64,000 bases of DNA. Source: Escherichia coli. Its GTDB lineage: Bacteria > Pseudomonadota > Gammaproteobacteria > Enterobacterales > Enterobacteriaceae. Shown here one piece after another: positions 1,930-51,753 of the stretch. The position numbers and the translations under genes are program-made. The stretch lies in assembly GCF_044324875.1 (NCBI RefSeq), contig NZ_CP172185.1. One strand, given 5' to 3'. Position 1 is the stretch's first letter. The number at the start of each line of letters is the position of its first letter. Under the pieces are notes generated by a model. That model was given only the letters and a program-made list of their open reading frames with translations. It was not told the DNA's origin and did not search any database.

Positions 1930-2050
1930 TGCAAAATGGCATCTGAATCGATCGCAGTTTGGCATTCGAATCGATCATGATTTGGCATCCATCTCCGATC
2001 ACAGTTTGGCATCACAATCGATCACGATTTGGCATGCTTCCGATCATTGA
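1930..2050 (+). repeat. IS21-family left-end multiple terminal repeats
   Basis: Five tandem copies of a ~20-bp unit (TTTGGCAT..CGATCG..GAT variants) between 1930 and 2050; typical IstA binding sites of IS21-family ends. Confidence 0.6.
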
Positions 2051-2131
2051 TTGGCATCCTGCCAGTCACTCCGGGAATTAACTCTTTTCACCACAGTCTC
2101 CATTGCCGTGTTTAAACCAGTGGAGACGTCA

Positions 2132-3697
2132 ATGTCCAGAAAGAGAAAATCCAGGAGCACTATGGAAACCTGTTTTAAGATCCTTCAGCTCAAGTTCGAC
2201 AAGAAGCTGACTAACCGTTGTATCGGACTGACGTTACACATCAGCGCCTCAACCGTTTTTGAGGTTCTTGCCCGCTTCAAAGCCTCTTCTCTGTCATGGC
2301 CATTACCTGCTGATATATCCCATGACACGCTGGAGAAACTCATTTTTCCGCCCAAAGACACCTTTGCATCAGAGCTTGTAATGCCTGACATGTTGTACTT
2401 CGATACGGAAATGAGAAAACCAGGTGTGACGCGGCAACTGTTGTGGATGGAATACAAGGCACAGGCGGGTAACAAAGCGATGGGATACTCGCACTTCTGC
2501 CGTTGCTACCGGGAGTGGAAAAAAACGCGACGTCTCTCCATGCGCCAGGAGCATCGTGCCGGCGAAAAGCTTTTTATCGACTTCTGTGGTCCTACGGTTC
2601 CTGTTATTAATCCGGACACCGGTGAGATACGCCGCGTGGCAATCTTCGTGGCCGTAATGGGGGCGTCCAACTATACCTACGTTGAAGCGTGCGAAGGTCA
2701 GGACATGATGTCATGGTTAAATGCCCACAGCCGTTGCCTGACCTTCCTGGGCGGCGTACCGAAGCTGCTCATCCCCGATAACCTCAGAAGCGCAGTGAAA
2801 AAGGCCGATCGATATGAGCCTGTCATCAACGACAGTTATCAGGCACTGGCTGAGCACTATGGCACGGTTATCATCCCGGCCCGACCACGCAAACCTAAAG
2901 ATAAACCAAAAGCAGAAAACGGCGTCCTCATCGTTGAACGATGGCTTCTTGCCCGCATCCGTAATGAAACCTTCCACACGCTCAGGGCGCTGAATGCGCG
3001 CCTTAGGGAGTTACTGACAGACATGAATAACCGGCCAATGAAGGGGTACGGCAATCAAACCCGTGCAGAACGCTTCCGCATACTGGATGCGCCAGCACTC
3101 TCTCCGCTGCCTCTGGCACCTTATGAATACACGGAATACAAAGCTGTGAAGGTTGGCCCTGACTACCACGTTGAATATGCCCGTCACTGGTACTCCGTTC
3201 CACACGAACTGGTCGGTCAGCGTCTGTCACTGAAGGCGGGGCAGTCGGTGGTACAGCTCTGGCACAAGGGGCAGTGTGTGGCGCAACATCCGCGCAGCAC
3301 ACATGAATATAAACACACAACCAATCCGCTTCACATGCCAGAGCGCCACCGGCAGCACGGGACATGGACACCGGAACGCCTGATCGAGCAGGGAAAACGT
3401 ACGGGCCCGTCCACAGGCCGGGTGGTTGAATCCATGCTGAAGGCAAAACCCCATCCGGAACTGGCTTATCGTGCAGTTCTGGGGCTGCTGGCACTTCAGA
3501 AAAAATACGGCCCGGAACGGCTGGAAAAGGCCTGTTACGTTGCCCTGCACTATAACGCCCCTGACAGACGCTTTATCGACAATCTGCTGCGTCACCATCG
3601 GGAGAACCTGGAGCTTCCATTATCCCGCCAGGGCGAACAACATCCGGCATATGCTTCAGAGCATGAAAACCTGCGTGGTCCGGGCTACTACCACTGA
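2132..3697 (+). CDS. istA: IS21-family transposase IstA
   Basis: ORF track 2051..3697; long ORF begins inside the terminal repeats, so the GGAGACG-preceded ATG at 2132 is the more likely start; N-terminal HTH then DDE-type catalytic region; followed by istB. Confidence 0.85.
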   Translation: MSRKRKSRSTMETCFKILQLKFDKKLTNRCIGLTLHISASTVFEVLARFKASSLSWPLPADISHDTLEKLIFPPKDTFASELVMPDMLYFDTEMRKPGVTRQLLWMEYKAQAGNKAMGYSHFCRCYREWKKTRRLSMRQEHRAGEKLFIDFCGPTVPVINPDTGEIRRVAIFVAVMGASNYTYVEACEGQDMMSWLNAHSRCLTFLGGVPKLLIPDNLRSAVKKADRYEPVINDSYQALAEHYGTVIIPARPRKPKDKPKAENGVLIVERWLLARIRNETFHTLRALNARLRELLTDMNNRPMKGYGNQTRAERFRILDAPALSPLPLAPYEYTEYKAVKVGPDYHVEYARHWYSVPHELVGQRLSLKAGQSVVQLWHKGQCVAQHPRSTHEYKHTTNPLHMPERHRQHGTWTPERLIEQGKRTGPSTGRVVESMLKAKPHPELAYRAVLGLLALQKKYGPERLEKACYVALHYNAPDRRFIDNLLRHHRENLELPLSRQGEQHPAYASEHENLRGPGYYH

Positions 3698-3713
3698 CAG
3701 AAGGAACAACAGT

Positions 3714-4469
3714 ATGAGTGATAACCTGTTAAACAAACTGACCCAACTGAAACTCCCGGCGATGGCCGGGAGCCTGATACGGCAGCGGGAAACGCCTCAG
3801 ACCTACGACGAACTGTCGTTCGAGGAAAGGCTGACGCTGCTGGTTGATGACGAGCTTCTGAGCAGGGAAAACAGCCGTGTGGCACGGTTGAGAAAAAATG
3901 CCGGCCTGAAATACCAGGCAACACCGGAAGGGCTGCGCTATCCGGCCTCAAGAGGTCTGCGGGCTGAACAGATGAGAGAACTGCTGAACGGCCACTACAT
4001 AACCCACAGGAAAAACCTGCTGATAACCGGTCCGACAGGATGTGGCAAGAGCTGGATAGCCAATGCGCTGGGCGAACAGGCATGTCGACAGAAACACAGC
4101 GTCCGGTACTGTAGAACCGGGCGATTACTGGAACAACTGGCTCAGGGACGTGTTGATGGCAGCTGGCTGAAATATCTGAAACAGTTGCAAAAAATACAGG
4201 TTCTAATCCTGGACGATCTGGGGCTGGAACAGTTAAGTAACGCCCAGTGTAATGACCTTCTGGAGCTCATAGAGGATCGTTACGGACAAAGCAGCACGAT
4301 AGTGGTAAGCCAGTTCCCGGTAGATAAATGGCATGGTCTGATGGAGAACCCAACAACAGCAGATGCCATCCTGGACAGACTGGTACATAACTCACACCGA
4401 GTGGTCCTTCAGGGAGAGTCACTGAGGAAAAATCCCCCGGTAGTGGAAAGCAGCGAAAAAACGCGTTAA
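3714..4469 (+). CDS. istB: IS21-family helper ATPase IstB
   Basis: Walker A GPTGCGKS, Walker B LILDDLG; start at ATG 3714 (MSDNLLNKL) with SD AAGGAA, not the longer in-frame track ORF 3471..4469. Confidence 0.9.
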   Translation: MSDNLLNKLTQLKLPAMAGSLIRQRETPQTYDELSFEERLTLLVDDELLSRENSRVARLRKNAGLKYQATPEGLRYPASRGLRAEQMRELLNGHYITHRKNLLITGPTGCGKSWIANALGEQACRQKHSVRYCRTGRLLEQLAQGRVDGSWLKYLKQLQKIQVLILDDLGLEQLSNAQCNDLLELIEDRYGQSSTIVVSQFPVDKWHGLMENPTTADAILDRLVHNSHRVVLQGESLRKNPPVVESSEKTR

Positions 4470-4759
4470 AAAGCGGTAGAAAAAGTTAAGTTCCCGGTTG
4501 ATCGAATGGATGCGAATCGCTGATCGGACTTCGATGCCAATCCGTGATCGAATAGAGCGGAATACGCAGGGAACCACACAGGGTATGGACAAACATAATA
4601 ACAATAACAGGATGAAAATATTGAATAAAAAATAAAAACCGAGACATCATCATTTGCAGTAATAGCCACCTCCTTACCGAAAAGTGTGAGTTGCCGGACA
4701 TTTTTTAAACGCATGATAAGGTCTGATGATACAGTCACCCTGCAACCAGGAGGTACATC

Positions 4760-5011
4760 ATGCGTATACGTGTTTTTGGTTACCGGCACTGCCCTTCAGT
4801 CCATCGCATCATGCATCACGCAACGCGAATCCCCGATGAAATGGAACCGGATGTTGTGTTTATTGATGTCGCGAAGCACAGTGTGACGCTGCGGGATATG
4901 GCTGACCGTGCAGGCTGCCCGGTGGATAACTTCCCGTGTGTGTTTGTTGATGATGTGTATCTGGAGCCCCTTCCACCAGAGCCGGGCAAACCGCACTTTA
5001 CATACTGCTGA
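4760..5011 (+). CDS. small thioredoxin/glutaredoxin-fold-like protein (83 aa)
   Basis: Strong SD AGGAGG 7 nt upstream; pattern MRIRVFGY-HCPS ... FPCVFVDDVYL resembles the glutaredoxin/NrdH layout but with the CxxC replaced by HCPS; function uncertain. Confidence 0.35.
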   Translation: MRIRVFGYRHCPSVHRIMHHATRIPDEMEPDVVFIDVAKHSVTLRDMADRAGCPVDNFPCVFVDDVYLEPLPPEPGKPHFTYC

Positions 5012-5178
5012 ATATTTATTACCGGATATGGACAATCGCTTTCATTCGGGATAAAAAATACTGCGCGTTCCTGGTTTATTTTGCGTTGCTGTCATGACGT
5101 GTTTGCCTTCATTGCCGGGATCGCGCACTTTTTGTTATAACTCCCCGGAGGACACTGTCTGTAATCAGATGGAAACCT

Positions 5179-5613
5179 TTATCTCAGTGATGTCCTGGTT
5201 AATACAGAATACTGCCCCGGACCAAGTAACATAATGGCAATCCCCCCCATGAAATACAGCATTTCATTTTCAAGCCCCCACGCCCCTACTTCAGTCAGTG
5301 TGAAAAACTTCCCTGTTCCGACCAGAAGCGTGGCAACAATCAGTGTCAGCGCATAAATCAGAGCAGCAGGTCTGGTAAATATCCCAAGAATGATAAGTAC
5401 CGGAGCCACGATTTCACCAATATACACACCATAGGCAATAAATCCTGGCAAACCAGCATCCTGCAACATTGATATAATCCAGTTGACACCGTGCTCTATT
5501 TTGGCCACACCATGGAACAGCATCAATATACCAAATGTCAGTCTCAGCAACAGAAGACCTGTATCCGGGTAGTCTGTCAGTCTGGTAAAGAACATATTTA
5601 TTCTTGCTGGCAT
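5179..5613 (-). CDS. DoxX-family inner membrane protein
   Basis: 144-aa protein with four hydrophobic helices and DoxX-like motifs (LLLRLTFGILMLFHG, GGIAIMLLGPG). Confidence 0.7.
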   Translation of the reverse strand: MPARINMFFTRLTDYPDTGLLLLRLTFGILMLFHGVAKIEHGVNWIISMLQDAGLPGFIAYGVYIGEIVAPVLIILGIFTRPAALIYALTLIVATLLVGTGKFFTLTEVGAWGLENEMLYFMGGIAIMLLGPGQYSVLTRTSLR

Positions 5614-6590: not shown

Positions 6591-7505
6591 ATGCACTCAA
6601 TAAAAAAAGTAACCATGCTCCTGGGGTGCCTCGCCCTCACCTGCTCGATAGCATTTCAGGCGAGTGCAACTGAAAAATTCAAGGTCATTACAACATTTAC
6701 CATCATCGCAGATATGGCCAAAAACGTGGCTGGAGATGCTGCAGAAGTCTCATCCATAACCAGGCCCGGTGCAGAAATTCATGAGTATCAGCCTACCCCT
6801 GGCGATATTAAACGTGCGCAGGGGGCACAACTGATTCTCGCCAACGGTATGAATCTGGAATTGTGGTTCCAGCGCTTTTACCAGCATCTCAGTGGTGTTC
6901 CAGAAGTGATTGTCTCTTCGGGTGTGACGCCAGTAGGGATCACCGAAGGCCCCTACGAGGGAAAACCTAACCCTCATGCCTGGATGTCGCCAGATAATGC
7001 TTTGATTTACGTCGATAATATTCGTGATGCGTTGATAAAATACGATCCGGCAAATGCAAAAACATACCAACGTAATGCCGATACTTATAAAGCCAAGATT
7101 ACCCAAACCCTTGCCCCCCTGCGTAAGCAGATTGCTGAACTCCCTGAGAATAAAAGATGGATGGTCACCAGTGAAGGGGCTTTTTCTTATCTCGCACGCG
7201 ATTTGGGGCTAAAAGAGCTTTATCTGTGGCCGATAAATGCCGATCAACAAGGAACACCCCAGCAGGTACGTAAAGTGGTTGATATAGTGAAGAAAAATAA
7301 TATCCCAGCGGTATTTAGTGAGAGTACGGTTTCCGATAAACCAGCGCGTCAGGTTGCGCGTGAAACCGGCGCACACTACGGCGGTGTGCTCTATGTCGAT
7401 TCCCTGAGCACAGAAAACGGCCCGGTACCTACGTATATCGACCTTCTGAAGGTTACTACCAGTACGCTGGTGCAGGGAATTAAAGCCGGGAAAAGGGAGA
7501 AGTAA
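6591..7505 (+). CDS. sitA: Mn/Fe ABC transporter periplasmic substrate-binding protein SitA
   Basis: 304 aa with signal peptide; cluster-9 metal-binding SBP fold; followed by a sitB start overlapping the stop (TAATG); Fur and MntR boxes upstream. Confidence 0.85.
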   Translation: MHSIKKVTMLLGCLALTCSIAFQASATEKFKVITTFTIIADMAKNVAGDAAEVSSITRPGAEIHEYQPTPGDIKRAQGAQLILANGMNLELWFQRFYQHLSGVPEVIVSSGVTPVGITEGPYEGKPNPHAWMSPDNALIYVDNIRDALIKYDPANAKTYQRNADTYKAKITQTLAPLRKQIAELPENKRWMVTSEGAFSYLARDLGLKELYLWPINADQQGTPQQVRKVVDIVKKNNIPAVFSESTVSDKPARQVARETGAHYGGVLYVDSLSTENGPVPTYIDLLKVTTSTLVQGIKAGKREK

Positions 7506-8166: not shown

Positions 8167-9728
8167 TTATTCAGCTGGCAGTGCTATGCGCCACGGAAGC
8201 AGTTCGCTGACCCGGTTGACCGGCCAGTCTGCTATGACGCCAAGCACATGGCGAAGGTAGCTTTCTGGATCCACGTCATTCAGTTTGCACGTCCCTATCA
8301 GGCTGTACAGTAGCGCTCCCCGCTCACCACCATGGCCAGAGCCGAAGAACAGGAAGTTTTTACGACCCAGACTTACCGCCCGCAGGGCATTTTCAGCGAT
8401 GTTGTTGTCGATTTCCACCCAGCCATCGTTCGCATAGTACGTCAGTGCCGGCCACTGGTTAAGTGCGTACGCGAACGCCTTCGCCAACTCTGAGTGTCGC
8501 GACAGGGTCTTCATCTTTTCACGCAACCAGCTTTCCAGGGATTTCAACAGCGGTTTCGTTTTTCGCTGACGTTCAGCAAGCCGCTGCTCTGCCGGCATTC
8601 CCCTTATATCCGCCTCTATGGCGTACAACTGACCGATCTGCTCCAGGGCTTCTTCCGTCAGTGCTGACGGGATGCGGACGTGCACATCGTGGATCTTTCG
8701 GCGGGCATGAGCCCAGCAGGCAGCTTCCGTTATCCCACCATTGCGATACAGCTCGTTGAACCCGGCGTACGCATCCGCTTGCAGCACACCGCTGAAGCAA
8801 GCAAGATGAGTCTGCGGATGGATGCCTTTTCTGTCCGGGCTGTAAGCGAACCACACTGCAGGTGCCAACGCTGACCCGGCATTGCGGTCATCACGAACAT
8901 ACACCCACAGCCGGCCCGTCCGGGTTTTACCGCTCCCCGGCTCCAGCACTTTCACCGGGGTATCGTCCGTGTGCTGTTTGCTGCTCTCCATCACGTAGCG
9001 GTTCAGCGCATCGTGCAGGGGACTGAGTCGTTCTGCGGTCATCGCCACCCACCGGACCAGCGTGTTTCGGCTCAGTTCCACACCCTGGCGGCTGAAGATG
9101 ACGGACTGACGATGCAGCGGGGTATGGTCACAGTATTTACTCACCAGGATGCGGGCCAGCAGGCCCGCACCGGCCACACTGCGGGTCAGAGGTTTCGGGA
9201 GGAGTGGGGCCTGGACTATCACATCGCAGCGGCTGCAGGCCAGCTTCGGGCGCACCGTTTCGATGACCTTAAAGGCGCTGCGGATTATCTCCAGTTGCTC
9301 TGAGACGGTTTCACTCATCACCTTCAGGTCGCCGCCGCATTTCGGGCAGACAGTCACTGTCGGGGTGATGCGCCGGGTTTCACGTGGCAGGTCTGCCGGC
9401 AGTTTCTGACGACGGGAGCGGCGTGCAGGCCGGTCCTGTGGGGCGACCGCCACCGGGGGCTCTGCCTGCTCAACCGTACTGACAGTGGGCTCATCGTCCT
9501 GCAGACAGCGTTTTGCCGCTGCAAGACGGTTTTCCAGCTCAGCCAGCCGCTTCTCTGCCTGGCGGATTTTATTTTCCAGTTTATTGCGGCTTTTCTCTGA
9601 ACTCTGCCCGAACAGCATCCGCCGCAGCTTATCAACTTATCAAGCTGTGCCTTCAGCCGTTCGATTTCCTGTTCGTAGTCGGCAACCTGTCCGGCGTACT
9701 GGCGCAGCCGGGCCTGCTGCTTTTTCAT
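8167..9728 (-). pseudogene. tnpC: IS66 transposase TnpC, frameshifted
   Basis: N-terminal coiled-coil part (track ORF 9354..9728) and catalytic part (8167..9618) are in different frames; tandem 8-bp duplication CTTATCAA at 9628-9643 explains the shift. Confidence 0.75.
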
Positions 9729-19821: not shown

Positions 19822-21369
19822 TTATGCCGCGTTCAGGGCGTTGTGGTTGATAGCCATCATCGTCATCAGCCGTTCTTCGTTAGCGTCGTCACCGTGGATC
19901 TCGCCAGTTAACCGGCCTTCACTAAGGGTGATGATCCGGTCAGACACCGCCATCACTTCAGGCAGATCGGAGGAGATCACGATCACCGCCACGCCCTTTT
20001 TCGCCATATCAAACAGCACCTGGTGCACTTCCGATTTGGTTCCAACGTCGATGCCACGCGTCGGCTCATCGACAATCAACACCCGTGGATTGAGCGCCAT
20101 GCAGCGCGCGAGGATAACTTTCTGCTGGTTGCCGCCAGAGAGCTTACGCACCTCTTGCGTGCTGTTGACCATTTTGATCTGCAGCGCCTGGCGGTAGGAC
20201 TCAATCAGGTCGTCCTCTTTGCGGGTATTCACAAACCAGCGCCACTGCAACAGCGAGGAGAGGCAGGAGAGCGACAGGTTGTAGCGAATCGACAGACCCA
20301 GCACCGCCCCCTCTTTTTTGCGATCTTCCGGCACCAGCGCCAGCCCTTGCTCCAGCGCATAAAGTGGGTCACGCGGCTGGTACGGCACGCCGTCCAGTTC
20401 AAAGCTGCCGGTGGTAAAGGCGTCGGCGCCAAACAGGCAGCGCGCTACCTCAGTACGACCAGCCCCCACCAGCCCAGCGATACCCAGAACTTCCCCAGCA
20501 TGGACGTGAAAACTGATGTCATGCAGGGCGATGCCGTGTGGATCCAGCGGCGGTTTTTCCCGGCTTAACCCCTTCACCGACAAACGGACAGGTTTGTCTT
20601 CATGGTGGGTTTCGCTGGCAGGGCGGCGGTTAAAGGCCACATCACGCCCTACCATCAGGCGGATCAACTGCTCTACGTTCGTCTCCGTCACTGCGCCGGT
20701 GCCGGTGAAACGGCCATCCTGGAAAACGGTGAAACGATCGCAAAGCTGGAAAACTTCATGCAGACGGTGAGTAACGTAAATAATGCTCACGCCGCGGTTT
20801 TTAAGCTCCCGCACCACGCGGTGCAGGCTTTCCACCTCGCTGTCACTCAGGGCGGCGGAGGGTTCATCCATGATGATCAGCCTGGCATTGAGGGTCAGCG
20901 CCCGGGCAATCTCCACCATCTGCTGCTGGGCCACGCTCAGACGGGCGACTGGCGTGGTGGGTGCGACATTCAGTTGCAGATAATCGAGAATCACCTGCGC
21001 TTCCTGATTGACCGCTTTTTCGTCGACGATCAGGTTACGTTTACGCGGTTCGCGTCCGAGAAACATGTTTTCCGCAACGGTCATATTGGGCAGCAGGTTG
21101 AATTCCTGATAGATGGTGATAATGCCCTTGTTCTGCCGTTCTACCGGGGAGTCGTCCACCGGCAGCGTTTCGCCATTGAACCAGATCTCCCCGCGCGTTT
21201 GTGGCTGTGCGCCCGCGAGTGCCTTCAACAGCGTGGATTTCCCAGCGCCGTTTTCGCCCAGCAAAGCGTGAATTTCACCCGTGCCGACGGTGAGCTGGGC
21301 GCTGCTCAGCGCCCATACGCCGGAAAAGCTTTTTGCCAGGTCGGTTACTTTCAGTAAGGGTTGCGACAT
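19822..21369 (-). CDS. sugar ABC transporter ATP-binding protein, duplicated NBD
   Basis: 515 aa, two nucleotide-binding domains (GENGAGKST Walker A; second degenerate), RbsA-like. Confidence 0.85.
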   Translation of the reverse strand: MSQPLLKVTDLAKSFSGVWALSSAQLTVGTGEIHALLGENGAGKSTLLKALAGAQPQTRGEIWFNGETLPVDDSPVERQNKGIITIYQEFNLLPNMTVAENMFLGREPRKRNLIVDEKAVNQEAQVILDYLQLNVAPTTPVARLSVAQQQMVEIARALTLNARLIIMDEPSAALSDSEVESLHRVVRELKNRGVSIIYVTHRLHEVFQLCDRFTVFQDGRFTGTGAVTETNVEQLIRLMVGRDVAFNRRPASETHHEDKPVRLSVKGLSREKPPLDPHGIALHDISFHVHAGEVLGIAGLVGAGRTEVARCLFGADAFTTGSFELDGVPYQPRDPLYALEQGLALVPEDRKKEGAVLGLSIRYNLSLSCLSSLLQWRWFVNTRKEDDLIESYRQALQIKMVNSTQEVRKLSGGNQQKVILARCMALNPRVLIVDEPTRGIDVGTKSEVHQVLFDMAKKGVAVIVISSDLPEVMAVSDRIITLSEGRLTGEIHGDDANEERLMTMMAINHNALNAA

Positions 21370-21420
21370 CAGCCTGCTCCTTATTTATGGGGAGCCGCCC
21401 GTACGGCGGCTCCAGACAAA

Positions 21421-22350
21421 TCAGTTACCGGCCTCAGCAATACGCTCAGCCTGTTGCAGGTTCTCTTTGGTGATCAGCGTCGGCGGATAGTCCGCCCCGG
21501 TGATAGTTTTTTTCTCACGCACGTTAGCCACCAGTTGGCTCATCGCCGTGGTCACCGCAAAGCCGGGACGCTGATCCGCCGTAACCGCCAGCCAGCCGTC
21601 GCGCACGCGGGCCAGTGCTTCCGGTACCGCATCAAAACCGGTGACCAGGATTTCACCCGGTTTCACACCCTGACTCTGCAGCGCTTCAATCGCCCCCAGC
21701 GCCATATCATCGTTGGCAGAGAGGATCACCTGAGGACGTTTTGGCAGCGACGGCAAAACGCTTTCGACAATGCGCATCCCTTCCGAGCGCATCCAGTTGC
21801 CGGTCTGATCGGCGACGATCTTGTACATATCCCCGCCAGCCTTCAGGCTGTCACGGATCCCTTTGGTGCGTTCAATGTTGGAGGAGGAACCCGGTTGACC
21901 GGTCAACAGAATGATCTCCGCGCCGTTGGGGAATTTGGTTTTGACGAAGTCGCCAATCGCCTGGCCGCCCTTGTAGTTGTTGGCACCAAAGTGCGGCACT
22001 TTTTTCTGGCTGTCGACAGAGCGGTCAAGCGTAACGACCGGCAGCTTCGTATCCTGAATTTCATCTACCGCACTGGAGACCGCGTTCACATCGTTCGGGG
22101 AGACGATAAAGCCCTGCGCACCACGGGTGATGGCGTTTTCCAGGTCAGCCACCTGCTTCGGTGAGCTGCCCTGACCGTCCAGTACCTGAAGTTTCACCCC
22201 CATCTCTTTTGCGGCTTTCACCGCCGTGCGCTGCATGTGAACTTCAAACGGCATGGCCAGGTTTGGCGTACTGAAAACAATTTGCTCGTTTTCGGCTATG
22301 GCGGCCCCGGATGTCATGGCGATTAGGGCGGCTAAGATCAGTTTTTTCAT
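21421..22350 (-). CDS. periplasmic sugar-binding protein of ABC transporter
   Basis: Track ORF 21421..22398; start at MKKLILAALIAMTSGAAIA (signal peptide) preferred; RbsB-like fold. Confidence 0.8.
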   Translation of the reverse strand: MKKLILAALIAMTSGAAIAENEQIVFSTPNLAMPFEVHMQRTAVKAAKEMGVKLQVLDGQGSSPKQVADLENAITRGAQGFIVSPNDVNAVSSAVDEIQDTKLPVVTLDRSVDSQKKVPHFGANNYKGGQAIGDFVKTKFPNGAEIILLTGQPGSSSNIERTKGIRDSLKAGGDMYKIVADQTGNWMRSEGMRIVESVLPSLPKRPQVILSANDDMALGAIEALQSQGVKPGEILVTGFDAVPEALARVRDGWLAVTADQRPGFAVTTAMSQLVANVREKKTITGADYPPTLITKENLQQAERIAEAGN

Positions 22351-22381
22351 TATTATGTCTCTCTGTGTAGGGTTGTTGTGT

Positions 22382-23368
22382 TTAGAGGACGATCTCACGC
22401 TGGCAACGCAGTGATTCCAGCGCTTTATCCGCTAGGTACAGCGCACGTTCACCATCATCGCCGCTGCAATCAGGCACCGCTTCGCCGCGCAGAACCGCAA
22501 CAAAGTGCTCCCATTCCGCTGCGTAAGCGGATTTGTAGCGTTGCAGGAAGAAGTGTTCCGGCAGCGCGCTGGTGCAACCCTGTTTGCCGTAGTGCTGCAC
22601 CTGGTTTTCAAGGATATTGCCCGCGCACAGCAGCCCTTCGGAACCGTGTAGCTCCAGGCGCTGGTCGTAGCCGTATGAAGAGCGGCGACTGTTGACGATG
22701 GTCGCCATCGCGCCGGAGGCATATTTCAGAACGATAAATGCGGTGTCGATATCTCCCGCTCCGCCAATCGCCGGCTCCACCAGATTGCTGCCCTGTGCAT
22801 ACACCGACACCGGCTCTTCACCCATGATGAAGCGTGCCATGTCAAAGTCGTGGATGGTCATATCACGGAACATGCCGCCGGAAACACGCACGTACTCCGC
22901 AGGCGGTGGAGACGGATCGCGGGAGATGATCAGCAGTGATTCCGGTTTGCCGATACGCCCGGCCTGAGTGTCGGTTTTCACGCGACGGAACTGTGGGTCA
23001 AAGCGGCGGTTAAAACCGATAAACAGCGGTACGTCATACTCTTTGACCACTTTCAGGCAGTCGCGTACGCGGGCAAGATCAAGGTGTACCGGTTTTTCAC
23101 AGAAAATGGCTTTGCCGTAACGGGCGGCCATTTCAATCAGATCCGCGTGGGTGTCGGTCGCGGAGGCGATCAATACGGCATGAACGTTCGGATCGGTCAT
23201 CGCCTCATCCAGGCTCTGCTGGCGCGCCTGATACTGTGTCGCGAGACGCGTGGCGAACTCCTGATTCGGGTCTACCACAGACCAGAGCGTGGTCGCACTA
23301 TGGCTGGCGATGTTAGCTGCATGTACCTGGCCAATTCGGCCAGCGCCCAGTAAAGCAATGTTAAACAT
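22382..23368 (-). CDS. iolG: myo-inositol 2-dehydrogenase IolG
   Basis: 328 aa Gfo/Idh/MocA protein, GAGRIGQVHA dinucleotide motif and CEKP. Confidence 0.8.
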   Translation of the reverse strand: MFNIALLGAGRIGQVHAANIASHSATTLWSVVDPNQEFATRLATQYQARQQSLDEAMTDPNVHAVLIASATDTHADLIEMAARYGKAIFCEKPVHLDLARVRDCLKVVKEYDVPLFIGFNRRFDPQFRRVKTDTQAGRIGKPESLLIISRDPSPPPAEYVRVSGGMFRDMTIHDFDMARFIMGEEPVSVYAQGSNLVEPAIGGAGDIDTAFIVLKYASGAMATIVNSRRSSYGYDQRLELHGSEGLLCAGNILENQVQHYGKQGCTSALPEHFFLQRYKSAYAAEWEHFVAVLRGEAVPDCSGDDGERALYLADKALESLRCQREIVL

Positions 23369-23570
23369 AACGGCTCCCGGTGTTGATGAATGCGGTGAAC
23401 TAACGACACTACAAATAAAACATTTATTTCATTTTTATAAATAGTGAAAATTATATTTTGAGTGCCAGTTAACACTTTTGAGATGTATTAGATAAATTTT
23501 GTTATCAATCTCACAACGCCGAGGAAGATATGTCCCTCCATTACAAGGGGGGGAGGGAATAAAAACTGTA

Positions 23571-23601
23571 CCATCCCCTCTCCCGTTGGGAGAGGGGATG
23601 G
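23571..23601 (-). terminator. perfect 14-bp-arm palindrome, likely terminator after iolD
   Basis: CCATCCCCTCTCCC-GTT-GGGAGAGGGGATGG followed on minus strand by TTTTTATT; second GC hairpin (TCCCTCC...GGAGGGA) at 23533-23558. Confidence 0.5.
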
Positions 23602-23652
23602 GTGAGGGGAAAAAAGAAAAATGAAATGAAAATTTCGTTACGACAGGAAAAC

Positions 23653-25578
23653 TCAATACTGACGAGCTTTTTTCACCTGAGCCTGTGTTTGCTCGGCGGC
23701 CTGGCGCACTGCTGGCGACTCTGCCACCTGTGCGTTGCCGGTTCGCCACCATGACGCGTAATCATGGGTCATGGTTTTTGGTAGCACTTTGATGTCGAGG
23801 AGCGTCGGTCCCGGGTGAGCGCGCGAGGCTTCCAGCGCCGCCAGCAGGCTTTTCTCATTATGTACCCGCCATGCGCGGCAACCGTAGCTTTCCGCGTTTT
23901 GCGCAAAATCGACCTTCACCAACGGCCCGTCAAGCTGACCTGTTTTCGGATTACGGTAACGATTTTCTGTGCCAAAACTCCCCATTCCGTGCCCCATCTG
24001 CAGGTTATTAATGCAGCCGAAGCTGGCGTTATCAAACAGCAGAATGGTGACCTTAATTCCCTCCTGTACGGCAGTTTGCAGCTCTGAGTGCAGCATCATG
24101 TACGAACCATCGCCTACCATGGCATACACCGGCTGCTGAGGTTTTGCCAGCTTCGCACCAATAGCCGCTGCGACCTCATACCCCATGCAGGAGTAACCAT
24201 ACTCCAGATGGTAACTGTCAGGCGTTTTAACCTGCCAGAGGCGTTGCAAATCCCCTGGCAGCGATCCGGCCGCCCCCACCACAATGGCGTTATCCTCAAT
24301 ATGCTGGTTAATGAGCCCCAACACCCGCGTCTGGGTCAGGTGTGTGTTGAGCGTTTCACCGTATTCCATTAGCTGTGCATCAAGGTGCCCTGCCACTTCG
24401 GGAACGTCGTCAGGATGCCACTGGCGTTCCCACAGTCGACAGCATTCATCGTGCCAAGCGGATTTCGCATGGGCAATCGCCTCCCCCCAGCCACTACGAT
24501 AATCTTTCAGTGCGTGGGTCAACGCTGTCAGACCAGTTCGGGCATCGGCAATGAGCGCGGTGGCATCCAGCTTCAGGGAGTCAAACTCAGCCACGTTCAG
24601 CAGCAGGAACTCGACGTCGGGATGAGAAAAGAGCGCCTTAGAGCCGGTAGTAAAATCCGTCAGGCGCGTGCCGATGCCAATCACTAAGTCAGCCTGCGGC
24701 GCAAGCTGGTTGGCAGCCATTCCGCCCGTCACGCCCACCCCGCCCAGATTAAGCGGGTGGTCACTTACCAGCGCCCCCTTACCGGCCTGGGTTTCGGCAA
24801 ACGGCAATTGCAGCACTTCAACAAATTCCCGTAACGCCTCATGCGCACCGGAGTAACGCACGCCACCGCCGCACACCACCAGTGGACGGCGCTTGCGGGA
24901 AATCAATGCATGAGCCTGCGCCAGTCGCTGCGGGTCAGGCGGACGGCGTTCAATATGATGCACCCGACGCGCAAAGAAACTCAGGGGGTAATCCCAGGCC
25001 TCCCCCTGCACATCCTGAGGTAGGCAAATGGTCACCGCTCCTGTATTTGCGGGGTCAGTAAGCGTTCGCATCGCACTTAACATCGCGCTCATAAGCTGTT
25101 CAGGACGGTTGATGCGGTCCCAGTAGCGGGAAACCGGGCGGAAGCAATCGTTGGTACTGATGCTGAGATCGTGATACTGCTCGATCTGCTGCAACACGGG
25201 GTCAGGCTGGCGGCAGGCGTAGATATCCCCTGGCAGTAGCAGCAGTGGAATGCGGTTCGCCGTGGCCGTCGCTGCCGCCGTCACCATATTGGCAGCGCCA
25301 GGCCCAACGGATGAGGTGACAGCAAAAATACGCTGACGGCGATGCTGTTTGGCGAATCCCGTCGCCATATGGGCAATCCCCTGCTCGTTACAGCCTTGCA
25401 TCACCTGCAGATGACCAGGATCCTGCTCCAGCGCCTGGCCGATACCGAGCACGTTACCGTGCCCAAAGATCGTTGCCACGCCCTCCACAAAGGGCGTTTC
25501 TTTACCATCAACGCTAACATATTGTTGGTTAAGAAATCTGACCAGCGCCTGGGCCATAGTCATACGTTCGGTTTGCAT
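23653..25578 (-). CDS. iolD: 3D-(3,5/4)-trihydroxycyclohexane-1,2-dione hydrolase IolD
   Basis: 641 aa thiamine-diphosphate enzyme (GDGS TPP motif); start may be a few codons internal. Confidence 0.85.
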
Positions 25579-25589
25579 AAAACCCCCTG

Positions 25590-27095
25590 TCAGCCCAGCG
25601 TCGGCATGGAGAACGCTGCACCTGTCTCCTGCTGCATTTCCGGCCAGCGTGCAGTGATGGTTTTCATTCGGGTGTAGAAACGCACGCCATCGTTCCCGTG
25701 AACATTGAGCGCGCCAAAAATGGAACGTTTCCAGCCACCGAAACAGTGGAATGCCATTGGCACCGGGATCGGCACGTTGACCCCCACCATACCCGCCTGC
25801 ACCTCTTCACAAAAGCGGCGTGCGCAGCCACCGTCACGGGTGAAAATGGCCGAGCCATTACCATATTCGTGTCGGTTAATCAGATCCACCGCGCTGGCGT
25901 AATCTGCTACGCGCACCACAGAAAGCACCGGTCCGAAAATTTCTTCTTTATAGATGGTCATCTCCGGGGTGACGTTATCGAACAGAGTCGGCCCAACGAA
26001 ATAGCCCTGCTCGTGCCCTTTCACTCTGAGGCCACGCCCGTCCACACGCAGGTTAGCCCCCTGAGCTTCGCCACTGTCGATATAGCCCAACACTTTGCTG
26101 CGGTGTGCGGCGGAGATCAGCGGCCCCATCTCGTTTTCTGGCGTCTGGTTCAGGCCAGGTCCGACGCGCAACGAAGCGATCTTTTTTTCCAGCCGGGCGC
26201 AGAGTTCATCAGCCGTTTTATCGCCAACCGCCACCACCACGGAAAGCGCCATGCAGCGTTCTCCTGCCGCACCATAAGCTGCGCCCATTATGGCGTTTGT
26301 CGCCATATCCATATCGGCATCCGGCATTAAAATGCAGTGGTTTTTCGCACCGCCGAGCGCCTGACAGCGCTTACCGTGGGCGGACGCAGTCAGGTACATG
26401 TATTCGGCAATCGGTGTTGAACCGACAAAACTGACGGCCTGCACGCGCGGGTCGGTCAGGAGCACATCAACGGATTCTTTATCGCCCTGCACCACGTTGA
26501 ATACGCCGTCCGGCAGGCCTGCCTCTTTCAGCAGTTTCGCCAGCGCGAGCGCCAGAGACGGATCTTTTTCCGACGGTTTCAGCACGAAGGTGTTGCCTGT
26601 CGCCAGAGCTATCGGGAACATCCACATTGGCACCATCGCCGGGAAGTTAAACGGCGTGATCCCGGCGCAGACCCCGAGCGGCTGCATCAGTGAGTGGCTG
26701 TCGACACCTGTGCCAACGTTCGCAGAGTGTTCGCCTTTTTGCAGATGTGGGATGCCGCAGGCGAATTCTACCACTTCCAGACCACGGGTCAGTTCACCTA
26801 CTGCATCTGAGAAGACCTTACCGTGTTCTTCACTGATAATACGGGCCAGACGCTCCATATTCTCTTCAAGCAACGCTTTGAAGCGGAACATCACACGCGC
26901 GCGCTTGAGTGGAGCAAAACGTGCCCACGCGGGAAACGCCAACTGTGCTGCGGCAATCGCCTGTTCGGTTTCCTGTGCCGTACTCATCACCACCTGGCGA
27001 ATCTGCTCGCCAGTGGCCGGGTTGAAGATCGCCTGAATGCGCTGGCCTGAACCGGTGACACATTCGCCGTGAATAAAATTCGCTACCGTCTCCAT
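25590..27095 (-). CDS. iolA: malonate/methylmalonate-semialdehyde dehydrogenase IolA
   Basis: 501 aa aldehyde dehydrogenase with catalytic Cys region GERCMA and EEIFGPV. Confidence 0.85.
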
Positions 27096-27385
27096 CCTTA
27101 ACCTCTCGCTGTTGATACGTGATTGTTACCTGAACGTTATGTACTGAACACTATATATGAAACAAATATTCCATTTTAAGTTGAAATAAAATAAATAATG
27201 ATTATTGTGATCAAGGATGGATTTTTATGTGAACAGCCAGCATCACTGACTCAGCCTGAGCTATTAGGAGTTTCGGGCGAGGAAATGACTGAAGCTTCTG
27301 TTTCATTTTTGCTGCCAAGTGGATGGCCAACATTTAAAAGACGCGGTTTTGCGTTTAGAATCATGAGACTGGATAGGGGGATAAC

Positions 27386-28246
27386 ATGACGACAGCAACC
27401 AGCCTGAACGAACTACAAAAGCAAATCCGCGATCGCTACGATAGCCTGAGCAAAAGGCTGCAGCAGGTCTCCCGCTATGTACTGGATAATACGAACAGTG
27501 TCGCGTTTGATACGGTTGCGGTCATAGCCGAACGTGCCGATGTTCCACCCTCTACACTGATTCGTTTTGCCAATGCCTTTGACTTCACCGGCTTCAACGA
27601 AATGAAACAGTTATTTCGTATGCACCTGGTGGAGGAAACCGCCAGCTACAGCGATCGTGCGCGACTGTTCCGCGAAATGGAGAGCGAAGCCGTACCTGAA
27701 ACGCCGCTCGATATTTTGCAGGAGTTCGCCAGTTCGAACTCGCAGGCGCTGCAGCAGTTGGCTGCCCGCGCCGAACCGGAGATGCTGGAGCACGCCGTAC
27801 AACTACTGGCCTACGCCGACACCATTTACATCGCCGGATTACGCAGATCCTTTAGCATTGCTGCTTATCTTACCTATGCTTTAAGCCACCTAGAGTGCCG
27901 CCCTATTCTGCTTGACGGGATGGGCGGCATGCTGCGCGAACAGATCAGCCGTATTAAGGCGTGCGACATTGTGGTGTCGATCAGTTTCTCGCCGTACGCG
28001 GAAGAAACGGCGATGGTCAGCAAAACCGCCGCCAGCGTCGGCGCTCGGCAGATTGTGATTACGGATAGCCAGATCAGCCCACTGGCAACGTTCAGTGATC
28101 TCTGCTTTGTGGTGAAAGAGGCTCAGGTGGACGCATTTCGGTCTCAGTCGGCAACATTGTGTCTGGTGCAGTCGTTAGTGGTCGCGCTAGCTTACCGTTT
28201 AGGAGATAAAAAACATAATAATACCCAGGAAAACAGTAACCAATAA
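27386..28246 (+). CDS. iolR: RpiR-family transcriptional repressor IolR
   Basis: 286 aa, N-terminal HTH plus C-terminal SIS domain, divergent from iolA. Confidence 0.8.
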   Translation: MTTATSLNELQKQIRDRYDSLSKRLQQVSRYVLDNTNSVAFDTVAVIAERADVPPSTLIRFANAFDFTGFNEMKQLFRMHLVEETASYSDRARLFREMESEAVPETPLDILQEFASSNSQALQQLAARAEPEMLEHAVQLLAYADTIYIAGLRRSFSIAAYLTYALSHLECRPILLDGMGGMLREQISRIKACDIVVSISFSPYAEETAMVSKTAASVGARQIVITDSQISPLATFSDLCFVVKEAQVDAFRSQSATLCLVQSLVVALAYRLGDKKHNNTQENSNQ

Positions 28247-44096: not shown

Positions 44097-44677
44097 TAGC
44101 GGATAACCGCTGAAACGATATCGGAGTGCATATCGTCAATTGTGCGGCCGCGACAGGCATGGCCATGGGCGGTAAAGTCCCAGTTGCCGTTATTACGGCG
44201 CAGCGAAGAAATAACGATCCCGGTATGTGAGCCCTGCTCAGTCAGCTTGTAGCGAGCCAGCTCTTTGCCGGTTTGATCGACAACGCGGCAGAACGCGTTT
44301 TCGACGTCATTGAACGACTGACCACGGAAGCTGTTTACCGTAAACGCCAGGTATTCAACGTTTGCAGGCAGTCGGGAGAGGTTGACCTTAATCACTTCAT
44401 CGTCACCGTCACCCTCACCGGTCAGGTTATCGCCACTGTGCACAACAGCGCCGCAGGTGGATTCCAGTTTGCGGAACCAGATGGTGTCAATTGTTTTACC
44501 GGTGCTGTCCATTAATACGCAGCCAGCATCGAGATCGATTGAGTCGTTGCCTCCAAACAATCCTCCAAGAAGACCTTTTTTCTTAACCGGATCCCAACCG
44601 AGACCGAAATGAAGCTGGCTTAATGCAGATGATTCTTTGCTGAGTGATACCGTCTGGTTCTTAACTAATGAAACCAT
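44096..44677 (-). CDS. terZ: tellurium resistance protein TerZ
   Basis: 193 aa TerD-family protein, first gene of the operon, divergent from the biosynthetic module. Confidence 0.85.
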   Translation of the reverse strand: MVSLVKNQTVSLSKESSALSQLHFGLGWDPVKKKGLLGGLFGGNDSIDLDAGCVLMDSTGKTIDTIWFRKLESTCGAVVHSGDNLTGEGDGDDEVIKVNLSRLPANVEYLAFTVNSFRGQSFNDVENAFCRVVDQTGKELARYKLTEQGSHTGIVISSLRRNNGNWDFTAHGHACRGRTIDDMHSDIVSAVIR

Positions 44678-44998
44678 GTTTTATTCCTTAAAATGGTAAT
44701 GACCGAGACAATCAAAGGTATATTTAGTAACTGACGAAGAAAATCATATCATGATGAAGTTCTCTGACAAGGGAAATTTTGGTAGTTTTCTGTAAAAACA
44801 CAAAAATAAATCCTTTTCAGGGTGTTAATTTTCTATTTTTAATTTAAATATCAATATTTTATCACGAATCCAAAAAACACTGGCGCACTCCATAACCACG
44901 GAAGTTATTAATCATATTATGATTGACATGCAGCTTAGACACTCATAGACTCACTTCTCAATCATAAATTTGCATGGCGTTCCGGATAATTAAAAAAA

Positions 44999-46057
44999 AT
45001 GAACAAGAAAATTTGGTTTATGGAAGGTTTATCCTCCCAGCGAGATATTATTCATGGGGTAAAATCATTTGCACAAAAAAATAATTTTGCCATTACCGTT
45101 TTTGCCTCCCACCGTAACGAAAGAAATGAAATCCTTTCCGTTGCCGATTATTCTTTGACTGAACCTGAAGATCCTCAAAAACGTCTTCAGTTTATCCAGG
45201 AAACCATTCAGACCTACGGTATCCACCATATTCATACTGGCCGTAACAGCCAGTGGTTTGAAGAACACCGTTCAGCCATTGAATCGACCGGTGCCACCCT
45301 TACTACCGGTGCAACGGGCGTCGACTGGTTAACTCTGGCTGACGAAAAAGTTACTTTTGCTCAGTTTATGGAGCAAAAGGGTCTCCCGGTCGTACCATCC
45401 TGGCGGGTGAATACGCTGGCAGAATTAAAGACACACCTCGCGGCCCCGCCGTTCACTGACAGCCCGGTATGCGTGAAGCCGGTGACGGGTATCTATGGCA
45501 TGGGATTCTGGCGCTTTGATGACAGTGCTTCGCCTATGGCCGTCTTTAATCATCCCGAACATCGTCTGGTCAGTCCGCAACAGTATATTGCAGCAGCATC
45601 TGCTGCTGAGTCGTTTAAACCCCTTGTTTTGATGCCGTACCTGCCAGGCCCGGAATTTTCCGTCGATATCCTCGCGGATAAGGGCGAAATACTCGCAGCC
45701 GTGGGACGCCGTAAGGAAGGGGCTATCCAGTATCTGGTAAACGAAGGAAGCGCCTGGGAACTGGCGTGTGACTGCGCCCGTGTTATGAAGGCCGACGGGC
45801 TGGTGAATGTTCAGACGCGAAACGATGTGAATGGCAACCCGGTGCTGCTTGAAACCAACATGCGTCCGTCAGGGGGGGTGGGTTATACCCTTCACAGCGG
45901 GGTGAACCTTCCTGGGTTATTTGCTGCCTTTAAGCTCGGTCTGATGTCTGAAGATATGGTACGCCAGAGCGCTAAAAACACCTTTTCTCCGGTTGCGGTG
46001 AGATCCATTACGGATGTAATTGCATACCCGGAATCACTCTCTAACCTTCTGAGTTAA
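44999..46057 (+). CDS. ATP-grasp domain protein of ter-associated biosynthetic module
   Basis: 352 aa; gene order ATP-grasp/PRTase/HAD/StiP/HpcH next to ter genes matches the described ter-linked module; assignment from context and overall architecture, not from motifs I could verify. Confidence 0.6.
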   Translation: MNKKIWFMEGLSSQRDIIHGVKSFAQKNNFAITVFASHRNERNEILSVADYSLTEPEDPQKRLQFIQETIQTYGIHHIHTGRNSQWFEEHRSAIESTGATLTTGATGVDWLTLADEKVTFAQFMEQKGLPVVPSWRVNTLAELKTHLAAPPFTDSPVCVKPVTGIYGMGFWRFDDSASPMAVFNHPEHRLVSPQQYIAAASAAESFKPLVLMPYLPGPEFSVDILADKGEILAAVGRRKEGAIQYLVNEGSAWELACDCARVMKADGLVNVQTRNDVNGNPVLLETNMRPSGGVGYTLHSGVNLPGLFAAFKLGLMSEDMVRQSAKNTFSPVAVRSITDVIAYPESLSNLLS

Positions 46058-46066
46058 GGCGTATTT

Positions 46067-47209
46067 ATGTCTGATATCCTCGAAGATATGATTTATCGCC
46101 GTACCCTCTCATGCGGTACGATTCAGGTAACCCGTGACCAGGGTGAAGTTTCGCTCGATGACCTGTTTGACATCGCTGAAAGACGTAACCCGAAACGCGC
46201 CTTTCTGTTTGTCAGCAAAGTACTCGGCAGGCACATTCCCGTGCCACCCTCAGTCATGCGGCAGGCCTACAGACAGCTTGCCAGCCAGTTCCCCTCGACA
46301 CTGACAGGACCCGTACTGTTTATCGGTATGGCTGAAACCGCCGTTGGGCTTGGGGCCGGTGTATTTGATGAAGTGCGCCACCAGCATCGTGAATCTGTCT
46401 ATCTGACCTCTACCCGTCACCCGGTTGATGGCACGTTGCTTTGCGAGTTCAAGGAAGAACACAGCCACGCCACCGATCATCTGATCTATCTGCCAGATGA
46501 TGAAGAGAAAAGACGTCGTGTTACCAACGCACGAACGCTGGTTTTGATTGATGACGAGGCAACCACCGGTAATACCTTTATTAACCTGCTTTCTGCCCTG
46601 CGTAATACCGGCAAGCTTCAACATATTGAACAGGTTATCGCCGTAACGCTGACCGACTGGAGTGGCAATGCCCTGTCGGAGCGCACCCCCTTGCCAGTCA
46701 CTTCGGTTTCGCTTGTAAGCGGTCAGTGGGGATGGACCCCATTACCTGATGCACATGTCCCGGACATGCCTAAAGTCAACGTAACTTCACGAGGAGAATG
46801 GGACATCCAGGGAAAACAGTCCTGGGGCCGACTGGGGATGCTCGCACCTGCGGCCGATCTCGGCCATGAGGTCTCCGTCCACAAGGGGGAACGTATTCTG
46901 GTTCTCGGGACCGGGGAATTCGTCTGGGAGCCGTTCCTGCTTGCTGAACGGCTCGAAGCTGCCGGAGCACAGGCATTTTATGGATCGACCACCCGCTCCC
47001 CTATCGCCGTTGGTTATGCCATTGAGTCCGCCATTTCCTTTACGGATAACTACGGGCTGGGCATCCCCAATTTTGTCTATAACGTCGCCCACCAGCAGTT
47101 TGACCGCATTCTTGTGTGTACTGAGACACCCGCAGAAAGTATTGACACGCAGCTTCTTAAAGCGCTGGCTGAGGTTGCGCCCGTCGTGGAGATTGTTACC
47201 TATGAATAA
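46067..47209 (+). CDS. phosphoribosyltransferase-domain protein
   Basis: 380 aa; PRPP-binding loop VLIDDEATTGNT. Confidence 0.7.
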   Translation: MSDILEDMIYRRTLSCGTIQVTRDQGEVSLDDLFDIAERRNPKRAFLFVSKVLGRHIPVPPSVMRQAYRQLASQFPSTLTGPVLFIGMAETAVGLGAGVFDEVRHQHRESVYLTSTRHPVDGTLLCEFKEEHSHATDHLIYLPDDEEKRRRVTNARTLVLIDDEATTGNTFINLLSALRNTGKLQHIEQVIAVTLTDWSGNALSERTPLPVTSVSLVSGQWGWTPLPDAHVPDMPKVNVTSRGEWDIQGKQSWGRLGMLAPAADLGHEVSVHKGERILVLGTGEFVWEPFLLAERLEAAGAQAFYGSTTRSPIAVGYAIESAISFTDNYGLGIPNFVYNVAHQQFDRILVCTETPAESIDTQLLKALAEVAPVVEIVTYE

Positions 47210-47975
47210 ACCCGTTGTTCTGAGCGACCTTGACGACACGCTCTTTCAGACCCGTCGTAAAATGGTGGACGAGCTGGCCCTGGAGCCATTCCGTACCGGT
47301 GCCGTTGATCGCACCCTGAATCCACGAAGCTTTATGACGGAAGAACAGTCCATGTTGGTGGACTGGCTCCTGGAGCAGGCTGAACTCATACCCGTTACCG
47401 CACGGGGTACTGAAGAAATCAGCCGCGTACGGATCCCTTTCCACTCCTGGGCAATCACAACGCACGGGGCCGTCATTCTCACGCCTGAAGGCAAACCCGA
47501 CGAGGAGTGGAAGGCCCATATGCTCGGCCAGCTGGCTCCCTACCAGGAAAAGCTGACATCGATGCAGCGTCTGATCACTGAAATGATGGACGCAAAAGGG
47601 CTCAATGCCTGGGCAAGGCTGAACTTCGAATACGGTGAAACGGCGGTTTATATGGTGATGAAACACCGCGACAGCACCCGCCTTGACGAGCTCAATGCCA
47701 TTGCAGATGAGATAGAAACGGTGTTTCCGACCGAGGGCTTCTACATCCACCGCAACAGTAATAACGTGGCCTGGCTTCCCACCCCGGTTGAGAAAGGGCT
47801 GGCAGTCAGCTGGCTGCTTGAAAAACTTCGGGCTGAACGAGGAGTTTTCCCCGTAATTGGTTTGGGCGACAGCCTGAGCGATCATCGTTTTATGAAACTG
47901 TGCAGCTGGTTTGGCATCCCGCGTCAGAGTCAGTTTGCAGATGCCATTTCACAGCGAATTTTTGGAGAAAATTAA
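47202..47975 (+). CDS. HAD-family hydrolase
   Basis: Track ORF 46866..47975; start at ATG 47202 (MNKPVVLSDLDDTLF) gives the HAD motif-I DxDxT at the N-terminus. Confidence 0.75.
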   Translation: MNKPVVLSDLDDTLFQTRRKMVDELALEPFRTGAVDRTLNPRSFMTEEQSMLVDWLLEQAELIPVTARGTEEISRVRIPFHSWAITTHGAVILTPEGKPDEEWKAHMLGQLAPYQEKLTSMQRLITEMMDAKGLNAWARLNFEYGETAVYMVMKHRDSTRLDELNAIADEIETVFPTEGFYIHRNSNNVAWLPTPVEKGLAVSWLLEKLRAERGVFPVIGLGDSLSDHRFMKLCSWFGIPRQSQFADAISQRIFGEN

Positions 47976-47976
47976 A

Positions 47977-50012: not shown

Positions 50013-50022
50013 GGAAATCATA

Positions 50023-51231: not shown

Positions 51232-51248
51232 GCAGGCTAAATCTTACG

Positions 51249-51716: not shown

Positions 51717-51730
51717 CGCTAAATCTCAGA

Positions 51731-51753
51731 CCGGGGTGAAAACCCCGGTTTTG
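51731..51753 (+). terminator. rho-independent terminator after terW
   Basis: CCGGGGT-GAAAA-CCCCGG followed by TTTTGT, 15 nt after the terW stop. Confidence 0.55.

Follow-up and report, generated by a model that had tools for sequence, protein, structure and literature searches.

The window analysed here, a stretch of 64,000 nucleotides of Escherichia coli DNA, contains a small open reading frame just outside one end of an IS21 element, whose product had been described in an earlier note as a glutaredoxin-like protein with a degenerate active site. This locus raises three questions: (i) whether the frame is a real gene, (ii) from which protein it descends, and (iii) what a protein of this layout may do when one cysteine of the redox motif has been lost.

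A small gene under purifying selection

Two features define the locus:
4748..4753, + strand: perfect Shine-Dalgarno sequence AGGAGG, read directly from the DNA, with a 6-nt spacer to the ATG
4760..5011, + strand: CDS of the Grx1-derived protein, 83 amino acids, stop codon included in the coordinates; supported by the ORF list, the sequence, dN/dS, Grx1 homology, and the fold

The 83-residue translation of positions 4760-5011 on the + strand is MRIRVFGYRHCPSVHRIMHHATRIPDEMEPDVVFIDVAKHSVTLRDMADRAGCPVDNFPCVFVDDVYLEPLPPEPGKPHFTYC. The strong ribosome-binding site that had been noted for this frame is borne out by the perfect AGGAGG, and it is also retained across the family, which consists of three clades: CAGGAGG is kept in clades 1 and 2, the former including the window gene, and AGGAGG is found in clade 3.

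Comparison of the window gene with its clade-2 relative, to which it is 69% identical at the amino acid level and 71% identical at the nucleotide level, gave dN/dS values of 0.07-0.09 with saturated synonymous divergence (dS >2), and the exact sequence of the window protein is recorded from 677 contigs. Taken together, the low dN/dS at saturated dS and the number of contigs identify the frame as a real gene rather than a chance frame, and this gene is strongly constrained by purifying selection. For the main clade-2 protein, at least 1000 contigs are known. The product is of a cytoplasmic type, as a hydrophobic N-terminus is absent.

Not all alleles are intact. Some genomes carry an annotated 97-residue form, WP_001222695, in which the tail is frameshifted by a 1-nt deletion. 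In the nine closest complete E. coli genomes, the locus is one base shorter than in the window, and these genomes probably share the same tail frameshift, the sequence itself having been checked in one of them, E. coli TUM9803 (L001). The existence of tail-frameshifted alleles in close E. coli relatives suggests that the gene is dispensable in some strains. The allele carried by the window is the intact one.

Descent from glutaredoxin 1 and fold

Each of the three clades is recognised by the NCBIfam GrxA models, with E-values from 7e-8 to 5e-10. The scores are far below those of curated family members: the window protein obtains 32.5 and 27 bits against NF008401 and TIGR02183, for which the cutoffs are 84 and 106.5 bits, respectively, and clades 3 and 2 obtain 39.4 and 34.9 bits, also below these cutoffs. 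With the Pfam Glutaredoxin family PF00462, the window protein scores 17.1 bits (E 0.006), under the gathering threshold of 22.9 bits, and clades 2 and 3 give no match to this family. In a search of all PDB sequences, the sole significant matches were E. coli glutaredoxin 1 and its C14S mutant, with E 1.8e-5 for the single sequence and 9.5e-9 for the family profile. Profile-profile comparison by hhalign with eleven GrxA proteins aligned residues 1-69 with Grx1 residues 1-70 at a probability of 97.2% (E 3e-11), and the identity to Grx1 over residues 1-69 is 23-29%.

The predicted structure points in the same direction. An AF2 model for which the input was restricted to five sequences of the family has a pLDDT of 69, and its top Foldseek match is 1GRX (probability 0.99, TM 0.55); almost all of the remaining top matches are other thioredoxin-fold proteins, including the non-redox proteins KaiB and SH3BGRL3. 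In the AF2 models, the secondary structure consists of strands at 2-7, 31-36, 60-63, and 66-70 and helices at 12-21 and 44-51, a third helix being absent, and the top structural matches are glutaredoxins. This arrangement contains the beta-alpha-beta-alpha-beta-beta core of the thioredoxin fold; a cysteine stands at the start of helix 1, and a cis-proline loop precedes strand 3, the cis conformation of P59 being taken from the alignment. The glutaredoxin-like layout proposed earlier is therefore confirmed by both hhalign and the AF2/Foldseek comparison, and the thioredoxin-fold prediction that the earlier note had named as a check was obtained by profile-profile comparison as well as from AF2 models.

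Profile-profile and structural similarity together establish common descent with Grx1, and the gene is a rare offshoot of glutaredoxin 1 (GrxA). It is not a GrxA itself, since its scores stay below the cutoffs and it has neither the CPYC and GG motifs nor the last helix. It is more aptly regarded as a divergent variant of the glutaredoxin-1 fold, and filing it as GrxA or 'Glutaredoxin 1' would be inappropriate.

Active site, glutathione-contacting residues, and C-terminal tail

Comparison of the family with Grx1 revealed three segments of particular interest:
4790..4801, + strand: codons of C11-P12-S13-V14, the counterpart of Grx1 C11-P-Y-C14 according to the alignments
4934..4939, + strand: codons of P59, the counterpart of Grx1 cis-Pro60, and of C60, according to the alignment
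4967..5008, + strand: codons of tail residues P70-C83, PLPPEPGKPHFTYC, specific to the family and found in place of the Grx1 GG motif and last helix

The nucleophilic cysteine of the Grx1 dithiol C-P-Y-C is kept in the family, whereas the resolving Cys14 is replaced by valine, or by threonine in clade 3. C11 is invariant across all clades, and the clade-3 motif is C-N-L-T. The earlier note had described the CxxC dithiol as replaced by 'HCPS'; the loss of the second cysteine stands, but the register was off by one residue, as it is C11-P-S-V14 that aligns with CPYC. P59 is likewise invariant in the family, and the cis-proline loop T-V-P of Grx1 has become (N/K)-F-P. Next to it, Q61 of Grx1 is replaced by cysteine, C60, which is conserved except in one singleton variant with serine at this position. 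Judged by these alignments, the family keeps both elements that a thiol enzyme of the thioredoxin fold minimally needs for catalysis, namely C11 and the cis-proline loop with P59.

Other positions have changed jointly. R8 of Grx1 is replaced by an invariant tyrosine, with a lysine or arginine conserved at position 9 instead; Y13 by serine, or leucine in clade 3; and K45 by an invariant leucine. The GG motif and the C-terminal helix, which in Grx1 hold the gamma-glutamyl end of glutathione, were not found: residues 70-83 are proline-rich, and the hhalign alignment ends at residue 69. According to the alignments, most of the residues that hold or activate glutathione in canonical glutaredoxins (R8, Y13, K45, the GG motif, and the C-terminal helix) are lost. 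The conserved lysine or arginine at position 9 is displaced by one residue from the canonical site and could compensate in part for the lost activator.

Enzymatically active glutaredoxins are reported to have only positively charged residues three positions before the catalytic cysteine, and the tyrosine of CPY(C/S) and an acidic residue starting the last helix contribute to the interaction with glutathione (Begas et al. 2017, PMC5382279). The residue at the former position in the family, position 8, is the invariant tyrosine, which departs from the pattern of active class I enzymes. Measured against these published criteria, the window protein is probably not an enzyme that depends on glutathione in the canonical manner.

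The tail that replaces the end of Grx1 has the consensus E-P-L-P-P-x-P-G-x-P-(H/Y)-(F/Y)-T-(Y/W)-C, in which L71, P72, P73, P75, G76, T81, and the terminal C83 are invariant over the three clades. Its AF2 confidence is low (pLDDT 56-67), and a short strand is predicted at residues 80-82; if this strand is read at face value, C83 need not be close to C11. Among the remaining residues, H15 is invariant across the family, and the surroundings of helix 1 are unusually rich in histidine in the E. coli clades (HCPSVHRIMHH). H19, H20, and C53 of the E. coli clades correspond to asparagine, lysine, and histidine, respectively, in clade 3.

Distribution of the family

The family is tiny. An exhaustive HMMER search of 1.84 billion representative proteins yielded three clades, the matches being an E. 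coli cluster, the 60%-identical protein P0015 that represents clade 3, and fragments of members; the next matches beyond the family were one true GrxA protein at E 3e-4 and two repeat-protein artefacts. A word-indexed search of 5.8 billion proteins gave 14 clusters, and all those with a named source are from E. coli. No relatives were found in 100,044 GTDB species representatives or in the IMG/VR and phage records, and a plasmid collection contained only one genuine GrxA at 27% identity. A role in phage biology or defence was considered and rejected, as neither PHROGs nor PADLOC gave a match.

Among complete E. coli genomes, the family is present in 65 of 5426, at 82 places, all of them on the chromosome; a single genome has at most three copies, and poultry is the source of many of the listed carriers. 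Clade 3 is known from one contig, where the adjoining katG is 90% identical to Kluyvera katG, so the host is assigned to a Kluyvera-like enterobacterium.

The sequences are already public under vague names, and our literature search found no paper naming the gene or its accessions. Clade-1 proteins are annotated variously as 'hypothetical', 'thioredoxin domain-containing', or 'glutaredoxin domain-containing', and one UniRef name for the family, 'Glutaredoxin 1', is misleading. Most clade-2 copies, flanked by iha and decayed ICE genes, are left unannotated by PGAP.

Genomic contexts

The neighbourhood of the window gene is delimited by two features:
1930..4568, + strand: IS21 copy A, given for context, as it sets the upstream boundary and has no part in the function of the gene
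5179..5613, - strand: DoxX family gene, the convergent neighbour (Pfam PF07681, E 2e-19)

The gene was seen in four contexts, clades 1a, 1b, 2, and 3, and no neighbour is common to all of them. Clade 1a comprises the window, L001, and a third sequence, L002. Its island encodes an integrase, EcsC, a hypothetical gene, an outer-membrane protein, a yebF paralogue, and a dolP paralogue; the gene is divergent from the dolP paralogue and is followed by the convergent doxX and then by sitABCD. In clade 1b, represented by the sister island L010, the upstream module is as in clade 1a, whereas the downstream part differs and lacks DoxX: homology between the window and L010 stops at position 5130, 119 bp past the stop codon and before doxX. 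A TonB-dependent receptor is encoded further along L010. The clade-2 gene is located between iha and the decayed ICE genes (TIGR03757, TIGR03756), and homology to the window is limited to positions 4653-5015. The clade-3 gene is convergent with katG and has sodC nearby. Because only the segment 4653-5015 is common to the window and clade 2, and because no neighbour recurs in all four contexts, the conserved unit is the frame together with about 107 bp upstream. This stand-alone unit moves among genomic islands of Enterobacteriaceae.

The position just outside the end of IS21 copy A was correctly described before: the right end of the element is 191 bp upstream of the ATG, and these 191 bp are native sequence. 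The identification of the neighbouring frame as DoxX is likewise backed by the Pfam match. The proposed functional pairing with DoxX is not supported. Adjacency of the two genes was seen in 17 E. coli genomes as well as in the window; however, they are convergent and separated by 167 bp, and thus do not form an operon, and the synteny with L010 breaks at 5130, between both genes. There is no DoxX near the clade-2 or clade-3 genes, so the co-occurrence across genomes, suggested as a check, is not conserved over the four contexts. Moreover, doxX is frameshifted in L002, where the glutaredoxin-like gene is intact. The genes are neither co-directional nor conserved as a pair, and we rejected the partnership on the grounds of orientation and synteny; that the protein is the redox partner of the adjacent membrane protein is the least credible of all the explanations considered here.

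Several observations concern the surrounding island in its own right. IS21 copy A is 100% identical to an inverted copy at 53503-56141, each being 2639 bp long, and the two copies bracket about 49 kb of cargo that includes sit, IS66, iol, and ter genes, among others. Compared with the uninterrupted island of L001, copy A replaces 230 bp, including the first codons of the dolP paralogue (1455-2015); the deletion removes the signal/lipobox region of this paralogue, and the missing segment was not found elsewhere in the window. The upstream island module corresponds to positions 1-2015 of the window, with the YebF paralogue at 1055-1408, the DolP/BON paralogue at 1455-2015, and an integrase of the tyrosine type. 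This module of envelope-protein paralogues travels together and occupies three chromosomal sites: after gcvP, near ulaE, and near lptG. Downstream of the gene, sitA is intact in the window (6591-7505). In L001, insertions of IS66 and IS21 cut the sit operon short behind sitA, and the window too has an IS66-family transposase frame, at 8167-9618. Further along are a myo-inositol catabolism cluster at 13990-28246 (an iolC-type kinase/aldolase, iolD, methylmalonate-semialdehyde dehydrogenase, and a sugar ABC transporter), a TerC/Alx family membrane protein with unassigned frames at 36598-52659, a 1291-residue autotransporter at 57745-61620, and an AbgT-family transporter at 61932-63491.

Upstream block and candidate regulation

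The region preceding the gene contains two candidate regulatory features:
4653..4759, + strand: conserved upstream block of about 107 bp that accompanies the frame, presumed promoter/operator and 5' UTR
4682..4703, no strand assigned: CRP-consensus-like palindrome AAGTGTGAGTTGCCGGACATTT, a putative operator found by consensus scan

Between clades 1 and 2, identity is 67% in the upstream block, 33% at the four-fold sites of the frame, and about 50% in the outer flanks. The excess over both the four-fold sites and the flanks indicates that the block is under constraint. It has no match in Rfam and no unusual RNA fold (z-score +0.6), and neither a consensus sigma-70 promoter on the + strand of the block nor an intrinsic terminator was found. 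The CRP-like palindrome occupies an aligned position in all four upstream regions, with 12-14 of the 16 specified consensus bases and a shuffle p of at most 0.02 in each.

Upstream of the clade-3 gene (L008, positions 1278-1314), 18 of 20 positions agree with the OxyR consensus. The grxA promoter of K-12 served as positive control; its site reaches 17/20 and lies at a similar distance from its ATG. At the aligned place in the E. coli clades, the OxyR-like site scores 11-12/20, which is not significant. Scans of the upstream regions with the Fur, FNR, MntR, SoxS, Zur, IscR, and NsrR consensus sequences gave no significant match.

Possible function

The explanation that we tentatively prefer, and hold at somewhat under even confidence, is that the gene encodes a stand-alone thiol protein that makes no canonical use of glutathione, has C83 or C60 as the resolving cysteine, and has a role in oxidative or thiol stress. 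C11 would still perform thiol chemistry, attacking a disulfide, a sulfenate, or a similar group on a target, and this chemistry would be independent of glutathione in the canonical sense. The resulting mixed disulfide would be resolved by a new cysteine of the family itself, either C83 on the flexible tail or C60 beside the cis-proline. The role would probably lie in oxidative or thiol stress; the link to oxidative stress is drawn from the clade-3 OxyR box, which is as good as that of grxA, and from the neighbouring katG and sodC. Against this explanation are the low-confidence model of the tail, in which C83 need not be close to C11, the replacement of C60 by serine in one singleton, the basic residue at position 9 as a partial substitute for the activator, the degenerate OxyR-like site of the window clade, and the frameshifted alleles. 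A bolder proposal, which we regard as slightly more doubtful, is a glutathione-free redox module in which a Grx1 core carries a proline-rich, cysteine-ended 'swinging arm' that would resolve or relay the C11 mixed disulfide, or in which a Cys/His metal site would be made up of the arm, H15, and C60; this module would be a promoter-plus-ORF cassette spread among enterobacterial islands and induced by oxidative stress.

Other explanations account for part of the same evidence. The residues C11, H15, and C83 are invariant, C60 is nearly so, and H15 lies one helical turn past C11; together with H19, H20, and C53 in the E. coli clades, where helix 1 is surrounded by histidines, they could form the site of a metal or Fe-S protein on the Grx1 scaffold, acting as a metallochaperone or sensor. 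Nearby cargo is often metal-related as well (sitABCD, iha, and the TonB-dependent receptor in L010), but these neighbours vary by context and are of the sort usually found in islands, and their presence near the gene may be fortuitous. Given in addition that H19, H20, and C53 are not kept in clade 3 and that homology searches revealed no known metal-binding family, we consider a metal site unlikely. The dismantled glutathione site and the replacement of the last helix by a conserved tail would also suit a non-catalytic adaptor or regulator, in which the glutaredoxin fold and the proline-rich, aromatic-ended tail bind a partner protein. Fold neighbours such as KaiB and SH3BGRL3 are non-redox proteins, and ROXY9 is reported inactive on standard substrates (PMC11724882). 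However, the strict retention of C11 and the cis-proline and the gain of an invariant terminal cysteine speak for thiol chemistry, and no conserved partner gene is found nearby; an adaptor role is about as improbable as a metal site.

An ordinary glutathione-dependent monothiol glutaredoxin, deglutathionylating its substrates through C11 alone in the manner of engineered Grx1 C14S, would explain why C11 and the cis-proline are retained and why a basic residue (R/K9) is conserved beside the canonical activator position; the C14S mutant (PDB 1GRX, 1QFN) is stable and forms mixed disulfides. We give this explanation a smaller chance still, since several glutathione contacts are altered together (tyrosine for R8, serine or leucine for Y13, and leucine for K45), neither the GG motif nor the last helix is present, and the scores are far under the curated glutaredoxin cutoffs. 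It is very improbable that the gene is a decaying relic with no present function. Its rarity (65 of 5426 genomes), the frameshifted and truncated alleles, the location in IS-ridden islands, and the clade-2 copies that PGAP mostly passes over would fit decay, but a dN/dS of 0.08 over saturated synonymous divergence, the conserved upstream region, and the dominance of intact alleles (677 and at least 1000 contigs) speak against it.

If the preferred chemistry, that of a thiol protein with its own resolving cysteine, is true, the family would represent a natural Grx1 scaffold recast to dispense with the canonical glutathione site and provided with a C-terminal cysteine arm, and it would be relevant to how thioredoxin-fold enzymes switch substrate and reductant. 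The gene is a mobile accessory gene whose islands are also home to sit, iha, ter, and iol genes. Its annotation is inconsistent and includes copies that are not called at all, and counts of functional Grx1 should leave it out. It is a tidy case of active-site remodelling in a mobile accessory gene, a modest curiosity with no sign of a new system.

Comparison with known systems

E. coli GrxA (PDB 1EGO/1GRX) and the window protein are alike in length (85 and 83 residues, respectively), in the core fold, in the position of C11, and in the cis-proline. They differ in the active-site motif (CPYC in GrxA versus CPSV or CNLT in the family), at R8 (tyrosine), at K45 (leucine), in the cis-proline loop (TVP versus (N/K)FP), and at Q61 (cysteine). 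Furthermore, GrxA has the GG motif and the C-terminal helix, whereas the window family has the tail PLPPEPGKPHFTYC with its invariant terminal cysteine.

The class II monothiol glutaredoxins with a CGFS motif, such as E. coli Grx4, likewise have one active-site cysteine. They are inactive in standard oxidoreductase assays, and their Fe-S binding needs glutathione contacts of a kind that is absent in the window protein. The CGFS motif was not found in the window protein, which has CPSV, and no class II sequence matched, the PDB searches finding only Grx1.

In the plant class III glutaredoxins, function is carried by a conserved C-terminal motif, and ROXY9, KaiB, and SH3BGRL3 are examples of thioredoxin- or glutaredoxin-fold proteins that act without redox turnover. 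The window protein resembles ROXY9 in combining the glutaredoxin fold with altered glutathione sites (PMC11724882). The plant class III proteins belong to an unrelated lineage and have kept the last helix; the likeness is one of analogy only.

The nearest mechanistic analogue of this natural 'C14V' variant is the engineered Grx1 C14S (1GRX, 1QFN), which has a single active-site cysteine in a CPYS-like motif. In Grx1 C14S, the glutathione-binding site is complete and the last helix is retained, which is not the case in the window protein.
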